DNA of 58,666 bases from a virus (taxonomy: Duplodnaviria; Heunggongvirae; Uroviricota; Caudoviricetes). Position 1 is the stretch's first letter, and each line of letters begins with the position of its first letter. The stretch spans positions 64,001 through 122,666 of the IMG/VR virus record IMGVR_UViG_3300010413_000002. One strand, 5' to 3'. The notes beneath the pieces are model-generated. The model saw only the letters and a list, made by a program, of their open reading frames with translations. It was not told the DNA's origin and did no database searches. Both the position numbers and the translations under genes were made by a program. This document shows positions 14,724 through 51,613 of this stretch, piece after piece.

Positions 14724-14738
14724 TTTTATTATTTGTTG

Positions 14739-14812
14739 TGGAAGTGATGGGAATTGAACCCATAACCTTTTGCTTGCAAGGCAAATGCTCTAGCCAATTG
14801 AGCTACACCCCC
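14739..14812 (-). tRNA. trnA: tRNA-Ala(TGC)
   Basis: Loop CT-TGC-AA, G3:U70, A73. Confidence 0.9.
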
Positions 14813-45548: not shown

Positions 45549-45915
45549 AGAATATCTAATAGCAACAAGAAATATAATAAACGCACTTCAAAATAAACAA
45601 AAAGACAAAAAAAACAACCTAACTGAACAAGAAGAAATTCAAGTTTTGAAAAATCTAAGAAAAAAATCATTAGAATCAATAGAAGCCTACAAAAAAGGAA
45701 ATCGTCAAGATTTAGTTAAACTAGAAAAGATTGATTTAAAAATCATAGAACAATTTTTACCAAAAGAATTATCCGAAGAAAAAACTAAAGAGATTATTGA
45801 AAAAGTAATTCAAAAATTAAATACTAAAGATATAGGTTTAATTATGAAAGAGTTAAAACAGTATAAAAATATTAATATGGGTCTTGCTTCTAAAATAATT
45901 AGAACCTTAATATAA
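45490..45915 (+). CDS. yqeY: GatB/YqeY domain protein
   Basis: ESIEAYKKGNRQDLV..E...IEQFLPKELSEE...DIGLIMK. Confidence 0.88.
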   Translation: MKILNQLKVLATKYLKEKNKEYLIATRNIINALQNKQKDKKNNLTEQEEIQVLKNLRKKSLESIEAYKKGNRQDLVKLEKIDLKIIEQFLPKELSEEKTKEIIEKVIQKLNTKDIGLIMKELKQYKNINMGLASKIIRTLI

Positions 45916-45985
45916 ACTAGGTGGCAGAAGGGTTATGCAACGGTCTGCAAAACTGTTTATGCGAGTTCAAATCTCGTCCTAGTTT
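45915..45985 (+). tRNA. trnC: tRNA-Cys(GCA)
   Basis: Loop CT-GCA-AA, U73. Confidence 0.88.
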
Positions 45986-45999
45986 CAAACCAAAATAAA

Positions 46000-46782
46000 A
46001 TGAATGGAAAAAATATTAAATATTATGAATTGATTCAAAATAATGAAGTTATAATTCCTAATTTACCTTTATATATTAGAATTGATGGAAGAAGTTTCCA
46101 TGTATTTACAAAAGGTTTCCAAAAGCCATTTGATTTAGATTTTATGAAAATAATGCAAAAAACTACTTCAGAATTAATTAAGGAAACAAAAGCTTGTATT
46201 GGTTATACTCAATCTGATGAAATAAGTTTAGCTTTTTATCCTAAAGACAATAATGAAATTTTTTTATTTGGAGGAAGAAAATTTAAATTAATCTCAGTCT
46301 TTTCTTCTCTTGCTACAAGTATTTTTATAAAAGAATGTTTAAAATCTAAAAATAAATTAATAAAAGAAAGAACTAAAAAAATTAATGTTTCTTTTGATTG
46401 TAGAATATATCAACTTCCAAATATACAAGAATTATTTAATGTATTTAAATGGAGAGAAGATGACGCAGTAAAAAATTCAATTAATATGCTTGCTCAAAGC
46501 CTATATAAACACAAAGAACTTCAAAACAAAAATCAAACAGAGCTTCAAGATATGATCTACGATAAAGGTTTAAATTGGAACAATTGCATTCCTGATTTTA
46601 AAAGAGGAACTTTTTTTGTTAAAGTCTTTAAAAAAAGAAAAGTTAAAAAAGAATATTTAAACAAATTTAAAATTAAAAATAAATTTTATTTTAGAGCAAA
46701 AATTGAAAAATTAAATTTAGAAGAAAATAACGGTATAACCATTGAAAAATTCAATGAATTTTATAAAAATCTTGATTATTAA
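46000..46782 (+). CDS. Thg1-like 3'-5' RNA polymerase (TLP)
   Basis: IRIDGRSFH, GYTQSDEISL, FGGRKFKL, FDCRI, WREDDAVKNSINM, FKRGTF. Confidence 0.92.
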   Translation: MNGKNIKYYELIQNNEVIIPNLPLYIRIDGRSFHVFTKGFQKPFDLDFMKIMQKTTSELIKETKACIGYTQSDEISLAFYPKDNNEIFLFGGRKFKLISVFSSLATSIFIKECLKSKNKLIKERTKKINVSFDCRIYQLPNIQELFNVFKWREDDAVKNSINMLAQSLYKHKELQNKNQTELQDMIYDKGLNWNNCIPDFKRGTFFVKVFKKRKVKKEYLNKFKIKNKFYFRAKIEKLNLEENNGITIEKFNEFYKNLDY

Positions 46783-46809
46783 TTTTTTTAAATTAATATA
46801 AAATTATTG

Positions 46810-46884
<75 letters not shown>

Positions 46885-49008: not shown

Positions 49009-49458
49009 TTAATCAATTTGAAAGTGTCCTCCGTCTTCTATATTTGAAAACCAACCACCCCATTTAATATTTAATCCAGTTTCATAACCAAAACGTAGTA
49101 TAATCCCAGCAATATGATGATAATATTTTATGTTCCAAGTTATTTTTCCATTTAACAATACCACAATATCTACTGCTTTACCTTTTCCTTCTTTATCAAA
49201 CTCTTGATGTTTAGATTTCTTGTTATAACCATCTTTACTTGTTACAACTTTCTTTTTATTTACTATAATCCATTTACCATCTTTAAGCTTTCTTCCTTTT
49301 TTATAAAGTTCAAATTGTTCTTCTGCTGTTCTTATTACATAAAAAACCTTTAATCTTAAAGGAGAATTTATATTAATTAAAAACTGATTTGTGTTTTCTA
49401 TGCAAAATGCTAAATTATTATTTAGATTTTTTAATAGTCTTTTGCTTCTTTTGTCCAT
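49009..49458 (-). CDS. Endolysin, M15 family L-Ala-D-Glu peptidase
   Basis: RTAEEQ..LY..GR, SKHQ, AVDIV, WGGWF, DGGHFQ. Confidence 0.88.
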   Translation of the reverse strand: MDKRSKRLLKNLNNNLAFCIENTNQFLININSPLRLKVFYVIRTAEEQFELYKKGRKLKDGKWIIVNKKKVVTSKDGYNKKSKHQEFDKEGKGKAVDIVVLLNGKITWNIKYYHHIAGIILRFGYETGLNIKWGGWFSNIEDGGHFQID

Positions 49459-49572: not shown

Positions 49573-49649
49573 TGGTGCGGTTTCTGCGACTTGAACGCAG
49601 GACATACGCCGTATCAGAGCGTTGCTCTAACCAACTGAGCTAAAACCGC
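49573..49649 (-). tRNA. trnI: tRNA-Ile(GAT)
   Basis: Loop CT-GAT-AC, CCA. Confidence 0.9.
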
Positions 49650-49721: not shown

Positions 49722-49751
49722 AGTATATAACTATTAATTCTATTTTGTCAA
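49722..49751 (-). promoter_or_regulatory. Sigma70-type promoter
   Basis: TTGACA-N18-TATACT. Confidence 0.6.
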
Positions 49752-50359
49752 GTATTAGACAAAATGTCTCTAATGTCTCTATTATCAATTTCGTTTCCTA
49801 TGCAATCCCAACCTTCATATTTTTCTCTTGAAAAAAGCTCTACTCTTGAAAATTCCTCATATAGTTTTTCTATTCTTTTTCTTACTTCATTTGGTTTTTG
49901 ACTATGTCTTTTTCTTTGAGACACCACACAAGAAGATATATAATTTGAAGTAGGCTTTAATACTTTTCCTTTAGTAAATAATAAACAAACTTCACAATTT
50001 GCTTTTGCGTAGTAGCCAGTTCCAAAAAAAAGAGTTCCATCTTTATTAGTTTTTGTCCAACTAAATCCTAAAGTCTTATAAGTAAATCCCCAAGATTCTC
50101 CTACTTTAATTCCTTCTTTTAATTTTGGAAATGTAACCCAAAGGAATAAAACTGCGTCTTTTTCACAAATTTTTTCTATATTCAAATTACATAATTCTTC
50201 TACAGTCATTAAATCATAATGACCGCCTGCCCCTCCTCCAAATTTTGTATTCTTATTGTTTCTTGCGTTGTATTTCCAAGGAGGTTAAGGGTCAGCATAA
50301 ATGATACTGTATTTCTTAACAATATCATCTTGCTGATTTCCTCCGTTCTTAAAATTCAT
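49748..50359 (-). pseudogene. MT-A70 family adenine methyltransferase with in-frame TAA in catalytic motif (pseudogene or recoded)
   Basis: Frame reads MNF...KKYSIIYADP*PPWKY...HYDLMTVEEL...LFLWVT...HSQKP...ELFSR; stop at 50285-50287. Confidence 0.85.
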
Positions 50360-50564
50360 ATTCTGTGTTTATTATTTTATATTCAAATGTTCTTTTAGGG
50401 TCTTTCATTATTTCATTAATAATCTCTAAGGCTTCTTCTATGTTTTCAAATATTATTGCTTTTTCAATTTCTGGTCTCCAAGCGTTTAATTTTTTTCCTT
50501 GATAAGAATTTAATCTATCAATTAAATAAAAATTACTTGGATATTCCCTAATTAAATAAGCCAT
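50349..50564 (-). CDS. Hypothetical protein
   Basis: 71-aa ORF. Confidence 0.5.
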   Translation of the reverse strand: MAYLIREYPSNFYLIDRLNSYQGKKLNAWRPEIEKAIIFENIEEALEIINEIMKDPKRTFEYKIINTEYEF

Positions 50565-51613
50565 TAACTTTTTCTTATGGTTATTAGAGTATCGTCCTTT
50601 TCAAGAAACGGTAAAGGTTCAAATCTATAGTAATTACCATCAAAATCATATTCTATTTCTTGTTTGAATTTAAATTTTAACTTTCTTTTTTTAGCTTCGC
50701 CAACTGTTATCTTTATTGGTTTTTTATAAGAAAAGCCTTTTTTAAATTTTTCAATTTCTTCTTCTATCTCCTCAATATCATCTCCATAAAAAACCAAAGG
50801 AGTGTTTTGTTTACTTTCTCTTAAAAAGTCTTTTATTGAAATTTTTTTATATTCGCTAGAATTAATAATTGTATTTATAATAACAAGATCATTTTCTTCT
50901 GCAAAACAATATATAGAAAAAGGAAAATTGATGCTTAATCTTATAGAATTAGAAGAATCAATATCAAATCCTAATTTTTTAAACTTCTTTTTGATTTTTT
51001 TAAATTTTCTTTTGCTTGTATTTGTTGGAATTTCCAAATATTTTCCTTCAAAATCTTCTTTTGTTCTGATTATGTTTGGTATTTTTGAATAATGAATATT
51101 TAAATTTATTGTATAAGTATGTTCTCCTTTTTCTTTGTATTCTTCTAGCTTATAGAACTGATACATGTGTTCTGGATAAAATAATTTATTGATTTCTTGC
51201 CAATGTTCTTTATTTTTGTTTGGATAAAATTGAGGAGGATTTGCTTCCACATCAGTAAATATCTTACATATATAGAATTTGTTTTTATATTCGACTAAAT
51301 CTCCAGTATAGAATGAGGTTTTTTCTATTGTAAATTCTTGTATATATTTCATTATTTGTTTAGCTTCTTCTTTTGAAGAACATTTATATTTTATTAAATC
51401 ATTATCATCTTCTTTATCTCTGCCCCAAACAAAAAGTTCTCCATCCTTTAATTCTGGATAATCATAAGAACATATACAAAACTTTTCATCTTTTGTATAG
51501 TAAGGTTTTCTGTTTCCTCTTTTTGCTCCATCTAAAAATTTACAATTAGTTATTTTGCCTTTAATAGTTAGTCCATCTTCTTGTATTTTGAGTGTATGTT
51601 GAATTTCAATCAT
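50564..51613 (-). CDS. Multi-domain hypothetical protein; N-terminal domain shared with 57244
   Basis: IQH...QED.LT.KGKI...ICS...P.L...FVWG. Confidence 0.6.
   Translation of the reverse strand: MIEIQHTLKIQEDGLTIKGKITNCKFLDGAKRGNRKPYYTKDEKFCICSYDYPELKDGELFVWGRDKEDDNDLIKYKCSSKEEAKQIMKYIQEFTIEKTSFYTGDLVEYKNKFYICKIFTDVEANPPQFYPNKNKEHWQEINKLFYPEHMYQFYKLEEYKEKGEHTYTINLNIHYSKIPNIIRTKEDFEGKYLEIPTNTSKRKFKKIKKKFKKLGFDIDSSNSIRLSINFPFSIYCFAEENDLVIINTIINSSEYKKISIKDFLRESKQNTPLVFYGDDIEEIEEEIEKFKKGFSYKKPIKITVGEAKKRKLKFKFKQEIEYDFDGNYYRFEPLPFLEKDDTLITIRKS

Follow-up and report, generated by a model that had tools for sequence, protein, structure and literature searches.

How can a gene specify a catalytic motif that its own DNA interrupts with a stop codon? 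The question is raised by a putative MT-A70 DNA adenine methyltransferase gene, for which an N6-adenine methylation activity is predicted, on the minus strand of a 58,666-nucleotide stretch of Caudoviricetes DNA that will be called the window. The window (positions 64,001 to 122,666) is the second half of a 122,666-bp IMG/VR virus record, IMGVR_UViG_3300010413_000002, which has direct terminal repeats, comes from a single metagenome assembly and has a G+C content of 25.7%. From 50296 to 50276 the minus strand reads GCT GAC CCT TAA CCT CCT TGG, and the motif therefore reads D, P, stop, P, P, W (GAC at 50293-50291, CCT at 50290-50288, TAA at 50287-50285, CCT at 50284-50282, CCT at 50281-50279 and TGG at 50278-50276). 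The corresponding sequence, ..IIYADPPW.., is uninterrupted in every IMG/VR relative in which a simple pattern search placed the motif (45 of 55 loci); since those relatives read IIYADPPW without a break, the window gene has exactly 6 extra bases. A first-pass annotation of the window had pointed to the stop inside DPPW, the 6 additional nucleotides and the CCT codons on either side; the sequence bears this out, and the arrangement recurs in at least 13 other lineages.

Apart from this stop codon the gene is complete. Its frame runs from ATG 50359 to a TGA at 49750-49748 as 24 codons, the TAA and a further 178 codons, with no other internal stop. The whole frame matches the Pfam MT-A70 family (PF05063) from end to end (profile positions 1-172 of 172; E 2.2e-27, 96.5 bits against a cut-off of 23.9), the part behind the stop matches it by itself (positions 8-172; 4e-26, 92.4 bits), and the gene also matches PHROG 359, 'DNA methyltransferase' (2.8e-70). 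All conserved blocks of the MT-A70 family alignment are present. The description of the remaining frame as open and motif-complete thus stands, as does the earlier remark on the downstream ATG: the first start codon past the TAA, ATG 50209, opens a product of 153 amino acids that lacks the catalytic motif. Judged from the sequence, D-P-P-W would become contiguous only in the product of a translational hop.

That the full-length methyltransferase is made by programmed translational bypassing, in the form of a short 'stop-hop', is the answer that we consider probable. It is favored because the stop is conserved, because a hairpin accompanies the insert specifically, because variants with inserts of 7 and 9 bases also allow DPPW to be made and because purifying selection is evident on both sides of the stop. 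Each of these points depends on comparison with related genes, which were collected by scanning IMG/VR and the JGI/ENA metagenome contigs for IUPAC patterns and screened with the C-terminal domain. All lineage counts given here are counts among the matches listed and are accordingly lower bounds.

The window shares the interruption, at the same codon, with at least 13 other diverged metagenomic lineages, which makes at least 14 in all. The nearest truncated protein in the databases (P0005, 71% identical) lies on a 1.4-kb ENA contig, L057, where the site reads GAT CCT TGA CTG CCT TGG, or ADP-stop-LPW. Ten further diverged lineages besides L057 have 6-nt inserts and read ..Y[ST]IIYADP-stop-[PL]PW... 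The stop-bearing genes are otherwise complete MT-A70 open reading frames (ORFs), each with its own ATG; in these ten the ATG lies 14-42 codons upstream and there is exactly one internal stop. One lineage was assembled independently in five contigs, and the stop is there in all five. The interrupting codon is TAA in 8 lineages, TGA in 4 and TAG in 2, and the base after it is C in all twelve of the 6-nt-insert lineages. The codon before the stop, from which the hop would take off, is always CCN (CCG 10, CCT 3, CCA 1), the codon on which it would land is CCN in 12 and CUN in 2, and CCN TGG follows the landing codon in all 14. CCG is the take-off codon in 10 of 14 stop-bearers versus 3 of 17 low-G+C intact homologues at the equivalent codon, a comparison that does not control for kinship; a bias towards CCG is suggestive. 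Three proteins that came up as additional stop-bearers (P0026, P0030 and P0176) were discarded, because DPPW is intact in them and the start codon before it had been mis-called or is missing. A different anomaly is seen in L062-L065 (for example L062:2317-3426), where tandem MT-A70 genes lie on a locus resembling a conjugative element (ArdC, MobL): in the second copy DPPW is intact, yet none of the start codons ATG, GTG and TTG precedes it, and gene callers truncate the protein to 141 amino acids; this copy may use a non-canonical start or may have lost its start.

Insert length is not constant among the lineages: inserts of 6, 7 and 9 bases are found, making coding gaps of 3, 4 and 6 nt, the two longer classes having come to light when the scanned pattern allowed the gap to vary. 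L402 (the same 101-kb contig as L354) reads GAC CCG TAA T CCG CCT TGG, a 7-base insert that leaves a 181-codon remainder in the +1 frame; L401 reads GAT CCG TAA TTA CCG CCG TGG, a 9-base insert. In both, the N- and C-terminal parts are full length and take-off and landing codons are the same (CCG). With all three insert lengths, and in 12 of the 14 lineages altogether, a hop that leaves the CCN before the stop and lands on the following CCN produces D-P-P-W. The first-pass annotation had put its weight on matched codons as the basis of the event, and in the window they do match (CCT and CCT), but identity holds in only 6 of the 14 lineages. Read off these sequences, the landing rule appears to be pairability with tRNA-Pro (CCN, and twice CUN) and not strict identity.

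The principal putative stimulatory element is one that the first-pass annotation did not contain: a 5' hairpin at 50336-50292, with a 5' arm at 50336-50319, an 8-nt loop at 50318-50311 and a 3' arm at 50310-50292 that is interrupted by a bulge at 50298. Its minimum free energy (MFE) is -20.9 kcal/mol (z score -7.2); with flanking sequence the figures are -27.5 kcal/mol and -6.45, and none of 200 shuffled sequences folds as well. The 3' arm covers the YSIIYA codons plus the GA of the Asp codon GAC, so that it ends one base before the take-off codon; across the stop-bearers the hairpin ends at the Asp codon, with one base or none left before the take-off Pro codon. YSIIYA(D) is thus encoded by the 3' arm, and a variable N-terminal leader by the 5' arm. 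In most lineages a single bulged base, some 12 nt before the take-off codon, divides the stem into a 7-bp upper and an 11-bp lower part; the distance from the take-off codon to the 5' side of the loop is 26 nt in 7 of 12 lineages.

Equivalent hairpins, with compensatory changes, exist in 14 of 14 stop-bearing lineages. In 48-nt segments, 12 stop-bearing lineages have a mean MFE of -19.6 kcal/mol and a mean z score of -6.1, versus -5.3 and -0.07 for 36 intact DPPW homologues (Mann-Whitney p 1.9e-7 for the z scores); when 54 nt are taken, all 12 stop-bearers fold, with energies between -12 and -29.5 kcal/mol. The hairpins of L402 and L401, at -24.6 and -24.4 kcal/mol, belong to the 7- and 9-base inserts. 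Synonymous differences in the 3' arm are matched in the 5' arm, the third base of the Ala codon, for example, being paired as A-U, U-A or G-C. In an alignment made with MAFFT, in which several rows are out of register, 70.9% of cells are paired, versus 34-48% with slid partners; seven pairs have double changes, and the covariation score exceeds those of all 500 shuffles. The closest intact relative of the window gene, P0004 (75% identical, motif DAPW), lacks the hairpin; it has an ordinary Shine-Dalgarno sequence and a short N-terminus, without the window's leader of roughly 15 codons.

The peptide that the 3' arm encodes, where a nascent-peptide signal of the gene 60 type might lie, is itself conserved: [YF][ST]IIYADP is nearly invariant among the stop-bearers (YSIIYADP in 12 of 14), and this stretch is at once enzyme motif and hairpin arm. 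The Ser/Thr at position -7 is more conserved in stop-bearers than in intact genes. Shine-Dalgarno-like elements flank the hairpin in only some lineages (the window, L057, L068, L131 and L153). In the window, the GGAGG of the element at 50339-50344 can pair with CCUCC at 50280-50284, looping out C-CCU-UAA; pairing of this CCUCC with GG-rich codons farther downstream was considered as a 3' signal and dropped, the pairings not being conserved. No Rfam family matches the site. When the genome was scanned for matched codons around a stop together with a 5' hairpin, the methylase site ranked first. The site in second place, at about 40459 on the plus strand of this genome (G000:C1) and outside the window, reads AAT TAA AAT between 145 and 59 open codons, with a hairpin z score of -5.4, and may be no more than the normal end of a gene and its terminator.

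Evidence that both sides of the interrupted frame have been selected comes from the window and L057. Synonymous divergence (dS) between them is 1.6 in the N-terminal part and 1.45 in the C-terminal part, and the ratio of nonsynonymous to synonymous divergence (dN/dS) is 0.15 and 0.135, respectively; over the 26 codons that separate the stop from the conserved Met, the first possible restart, it is 0.07 (0.073). Since the insert is shared and dS is equal on its two sides, the insert predates the separation of the window from L057, and the whole frame has been under purifying selection on both sides of the stop ever since. Before the stop, Ser is encoded by AGT in some genes and by TCN in others, and the codons for Ile, Tyr, Ala, Asp and Pro likewise differ without any change in the peptide. 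The first-pass annotation had proposed to look for homologues sharing the 6-nt insert under selection, and L057 is such a homologue, with dN/dS of 0.07-0.15 on both sides; of the opposite outcome envisaged there, a unique insert with relaxed selection, neither half is found, as the insert recurs and selection is purifying.

The history of the insert is nonetheless not simply that of the gene. The stop-bearers do not form one clade: intact genes are found among the near relatives of each. At least 4 changes are required by well-supported branches, and the approximately unbiased (AU) test rejects monophyly of the stop-bearers (log-likelihood difference 313, p 3e-6). Between L087 and L154, dS is 0.27 in the 5' part and 1.78 in the gene body, and nucleotide identity is 78-89% within the cassette and 55-66% behind it. 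Because the stop-bearers are not monophyletic and the cassette is younger than the gene body, leader, hairpin and insert would seem to behave as a module moving between methyltransferase genes; the cassette appears, on these sequence comparisons, to be mobile.

The hop itself, the pulling role of the hairpin and the efficiency of the event are what we infer from these patterns, and the sequence of events might be as follows. After 24 codons the ribosome would have peptidyl-tRNA-Pro on CCU (50290-50288) in its P site and UAA in its A site. A stop after Pro is decoded especially slowly, and the base 3' to the stop also matters (PMC3082878); slow termination would here be due to Asp-Pro at the end of the nascent chain and to the C after the stop. 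At this point the loop-proximal part of the hairpin's 3' arm should already be outside the ribosome, with the lower stem held in the E site and exit channel. As the 45-nt hairpin re-forms behind the ribosome, closing of the lower stem would pull the mRNA on by a few bases, whereupon the anticodon of tRNA-Pro would release and re-pair 6 nt downstream on the second CCU. Decoding would restart at CCU UGG and yield ...YSIIYADPPWKY..., with the canonical catalytic motif. Pairing of exiting mRNA has been argued to be a 'driver' in T4 gene 60 (10.1101/2024.12.09.627546). The central proposal of the first-pass annotation, a hop from CCU to CCU that restores ..YADPPWKY.., is in any event the one that the comparative data support best.

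Several observations weigh against a stop-hop. None of the further signals that might be expected was found: downstream segments of 30, 45 and 75 nt fold no better than those of intact homologues, leaving no 3' stimulatory structure or barrier, and neither a conserved take-off stem-loop in the A site, containing the stop, nor a Shine-Dalgarno-like element before the landing site was found. In L057 and L122 the codon at +6 is CUG or CUU, and landing there requires a G.U pair at the middle position (this being the only single-base change of CCN at its first or second position that still pairs with a GG anticodon), while a perfect CCU at +9 would yield DPW. The third base differs between take-off and landing codons in 6 further lineages. 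The 7-nt class consists of one contig, L402; the selection argument is mainly that of the window/L057 pair; and the intact gene bodies of some lineages could reflect recent invasion by the cassette, not long selection.

The simplest alternative is that the stop is read through, a near-cognate tRNA decoding it to give DPxPPW, with two extra residues in the catalytic loop. The insert of the window is in frame, Pro-stop-C is a poor context for termination (PMC3082878) and the product would differ from that of a stop-hop by only two residues (PMC5009743), all of which would suit readthrough; the other lineages do not. In L402, with its 7-base insert, what follows the stop is in the +1 frame, and readthrough, which would stay in the zero frame, cannot make that protein; the 9-nt variant would add three residues, and the three stop codons would lead to insertion of different ones. 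A sense codon, Trp TGG included, never occupies the position of the stop in an MT-A70 context among the pattern matches listed, and a two-residue insert at that position occurs in 0 of 269 homologous proteins. The conserved signal, moreover, is a 5' hairpin, with no 3' structure. We regard readthrough as quite improbable. There is still less to be said for a switch at the level of DNA, in which the hairpin and the short CCN repeats would promote precise deletion of 6 bases and only the deleted subpopulation would make enzyme. CCT TAA CCT is indeed a 3-bp direct repeat around 3 bases, and intact relatives adjoin stop-bearers on the tree, but identical repeats exist in only 6 of the 14 lineages, the hairpin lies beside the segment to be deleted and not across it, and such a switch would work one way only, re-insertion being implausible. 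Stop alleles dominate every assembly, including the five independent contigs of one lineage, and we think this explanation very unlikely.

That the gene is dead or switched off deserves more attention, although we find it unlikely also. The insert would then be a footprint, or a scar conferring immunity to a nuclease, left by an invasion so recent that the gene bodies still look intact, and the locus would make a 24-residue peptide and possibly the motif-less 153-residue product. The scatter of the cassette over the family tree (by the AU test cited above) and the low dS of the L087/L154 cassette relative to the gene body, which indicates recent transfer, would suit such a history, and with no nuclease in the window genome the insert could be a relic. 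It is hard, however, to reconcile a dead gene with the shared insert, equal dS and low dN/dS of the window and L057, which extend to the 26 codons before the restart codon, with the want of a second lesion in 14 of 14 lineages, with a stop that stays a stop in a geometry that always permits a DPPW product, or with a costly 45-nt hairpin whose compensatory changes are kept only alongside the insert. An excision footprint that killed the gene was the alternative offered by the first-pass annotation; two-sided purifying selection, the conserved stop and the keeping of the hairpin with the insert speak against it. Finally, the window comes from a single metagenome assembly, which might raise the thought of an assembly or sequencing artefact, or of an alternative genetic code, but we give this scarcely any credence. 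The feature is present in many independent assemblies from different projects. As to the code, ARAGORN finds 21 ordinary tRNAs and no suppressor in the whole genome (the phage tRNA-Pro(UGG) has a normal 7-nt anticodon loop), TAA ends 99 of the 138 long ORFs of the genome, no locus has an excess of one type of in-frame stop, and in 5 of the 14 lineages (L057, L131, L153, L154 and L401) the interrupting stop is also the gene's own terminator. A different code is excluded because the same stop also terminates genes and in-frame stops are not in excess.

A stop-hop, then, is the reading to be compared with what is known of bypassing. Very few natural instances of programmed bypassing are, to our knowledge, documented: gene 60 of T4 with its homologues, byps in yeast mitochondria and a candidate in phage phiHau3. 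The methylase site resembles T4 gene 60 in that a stop directly follows the take-off codon (in 14 of 14 lineages), the landing codon is pairable, the peptidyl-tRNA is presumably retained, a 5' stem-loop can form from mRNA leaving the ribosome, and an added N-terminal leader supplies part of the signal; the 26-nt spacing of the loop (in 7 of 12 lineages) is the gene 60 figure (10.1101/2024.12.09.627546). It differs from gene 60 in its gap of 3-6 nt instead of 47 nt (hops of 6-9 nt instead of 50), in using tRNA-Pro instead of tRNA-Gly, in that no take-off stem-loop, Shine-Dalgarno-like landing aid or 3' barrier was detected at the methylase site, and in its host gene, a single, unsplit methyltransferase gene.

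The candidate in Streptomyces phage phiHau3, a 10-nt bypass in the terminase gene (PMC10732093), likewise involves a short coding gap in a phage gene, with a proposed 5' stem-loop and a flanking Shine-Dalgarno-like sequence (in the window, the GGAGGA 5' of the hairpin). There, however, the trigger is a rare UUA sense codon tied to the tRNA supply of the host, and the gaps break the frame, whereas here the trigger would be a stop codon; gene family and hosts are also different. Synthetic stop-hops in Escherichia coli reporters (Weiss et al. 1987, as related in PMC5009743) are described there as low-level events that occur without stimulatory signals. Like them, the window site has matched codons flanking a stop, with 9 nt specifying one amino acid, in frame; unlike them, the methylase site combines a strong, conserved 5' hairpin with Pro-stop-C and is maintained in natural genes. 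In 2016 a review of recoding knew of no natural in-frame stop-hop (PMC5009743). What sets the window gene apart from ordinary MT-A70 or PHROG 359 orphan methyltransferases of phages is the interruption of DPPW in the DNA and the addition of a leader of about 15 codons. Full-text searches of the literature turned up neither an interrupted DPPW nor bypassing in a methyltransferase, phiHau3 being the nearest candidate, and a blastn search of the cassette against the cultured phages of INPHARED gave no match, the window itself having only trivial matches there.

Where might such an insert come from? The bypass of T4 gene 60 goes together with a homing-endonuclease element, MobA (10.1101/2022.08.31.505936; 10.1101/2024.12.09.627546; PMC5009743), and the gene 60 preprint describes MobA as intact, decayed or lost with the bypass retained, the insert shielding a conserved target from the element's own nuclease. 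Relatives of the window gene offer a parallel. Directly upstream of the stop-bearing gene, L087, L174, L153 and L402 have a PD-(D/E)XK protein of 154-164 amino acids (PF11645, above cut-off), of which remnants persist elsewhere: the last 53 codons in the L085 group and the last 30 in L154. As with mobA and gene 60, the upstream nuclease is thus intact, decayed or lost while the bypass part stays. A structural model built from 32 homologues, with a mean predicted local distance difference test score (pLDDT) of 86, has as its best PDB match the homing endonuclease I-Ssp6803I (2OST; E 5e-7, template-modelling score 0.62-0.65). The nuclease of these relatives is therefore I-Ssp6803I-like, of the PD-(D/E)XK type and not, as in MobA, of the HNH type, and the window differs from the MobA case again in that neither it nor its 122.7-kb genome contains an I-Ssp6803I-like nuclease. 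The cassette of the window is an orphan: the bypass part has been kept, with no nuclease.

The five closest IMG/VR homologues of the nuclease all lie just upstream of MT-A70 genes. One of these genes bears the insert; the other four have an intact DPPW, no hairpin and a diverged sequence before the motif (LLCD, IFSD, ILAD). More distant homologues (L359-L393, for example L359:2501-3633) lie directly upstream of, and overlap, methylases of the N6_N4 type with intact DPPY. Methylases of two unrelated families thus have nucleases of this family as regular partners, and a restriction-modification-like module would fit as well. Separately, intact members of the MT-A70 family vary the second residue of the motif (DAPW, DCPW, DLPW, DIPW and DVPW, in P0004, P0109 and others), and P0004 (L058:455-1018) has LLCDAPW in place of IIYADPPW, which resembles the diverged motif flanks of the nuclease-adjacent intact genes (L355: LLCDPPW).

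By analogy with these relatives, and not from the window genome, the insert and the hairpin leader likely originated in a mobile cassette with an I-Ssp6803I-like nuclease gene at its head, of which they would form the end next to the methyltransferase gene. The linkage suggests that the insert may protect the DNA of the conserved motif from the nuclease, with the hop making the insert harmless; the arrangement may throttle the enzyme (the first-pass annotation had thought of a limit on methylase output) or give immunity to the nuclease. A more far-reaching proposal, which we put forward tentatively and think has somewhat less than an even chance of being right, is that a minimal portable signal, consisting of a hairpin abutting the E-site codon, Asp-Pro-stop-C and a nearby CCN, drives efficient hops of bacterial ribosomes over 6-9 nt, and that it arose in a mobile I-Ssp6803I-like endonuclease cassette, as the end responsible for 'immunity plus repair', the cassette homing into the DNA for the DPP[W/Y] catalytic motif of phage methyltransferases. 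This would be the first natural family of in-frame stop-hops and an independent counterpart of T4 mobA/gene 60.

If a stop-hop does take place here, a decoding event so far shown only in artificial constructs would have a natural case, with a very small and sharply defined signal. The members of the family already differ, as a set of mutants would, in which stop codon they carry, in the landing codon, in the sequence of the hairpin and in the length of the gap (3, 4 or 6 nt), and with them one could test whether mRNA that refolds on leaving the ribosome can push it forward, what the minimal landing pairing is and how stalling at Pro-stop feeds recoding. There is also a consequence for annotation: gene callers report motif-less fragments of about 150 amino acids at these loci, so that active methyltransferases, and probably other recoded phage genes, would be missed. 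Should the link with the nuclease hold, selfish endonuclease cassettes would have recruited bypassing more than once to enter the most conserved part of a gene. The features of the window locus are collected in the table.

Features of the interrupted methyltransferase gene and its putative bypass site (window coordinates)
Feature	Position	Strand	Basis or remark
Putatively recoded MT-A70 gene	49748..50359	-	Begins with ATG 50359-50357; 11-nt overlap with the end of the 71-aa ORF upstream
5' stem-loop, putative bypass stimulator	50292..50336	-	Folding; insert-specific
Putative take-off codon CCT (Pro24), first proline of the motif	50288..50290	-	CCN in all relatives
In-frame TAA, followed by C; predicted 3-nt coding gap	50285..50287	-	Stop at the homologous position in 14 lineages
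Putative landing codon CCT, re-paired by peptidyl-tRNA-Pro and not decoded again	50282..50284	-	Inferred from geometry
Predicted resume codons CCT TGG (Pro-Trp), completing D-P-P-W after a +6 hop	50276..50281	-	CCN TGG invariant in all lineages
Post-stop coding segment, 178 codons, remainder of the MT-A70 domain	49751..50284	-	Pfam
Internal ATG, conserved Met of the family's HYxxM block; start of the gene callers' 153-aa product	50207..50209	-	
Shine-Dalgarno-like GGAGGA, 2 nt 5' of the hairpin	50339..50344	-	Sequence

A few further observations concern the surroundings of the gene. Within it, a 39-aa ORF in the +1 frame (50209-50328, minus strand) starts at ATG 50328, 10 nt past the GGAGGA, and ends with TAATG, overlapping ATG 50209; L057 has the same arrangement, ending with TGATG. 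The sequence suggests that ATG 50328 is at least partly a by-product of the 5' arm of the hairpin, in which GAUGAU pairs with the Ile-Ile codons. Upstream of the methylase are two ORFs (50349-51613, minus strand) of 71 and 349 amino acids without a match in Pfam or PHROGs; the shorter is kept in L057 at the same position. The 21 tRNA genes, 15 of them in one cluster, are at 2687-5060, 7385-7535, 14738-14812, 45915-46884 and 49573-49649, and a tRNA-Ile(GAT) lies about 100 nt downstream of the methylase gene. Farther on, at 49009-49458 (minus strand), is a gene for an M15-type peptidase or endolysin of 149 amino acids (PHROG 465). Nothing else in the region resembles known phages at the nucleotide level; the similarity is to the Fusobacterium phages JD-Fnp2, 3 and 5 (77.5% over 80 nt) and gives a weak hint at the host.

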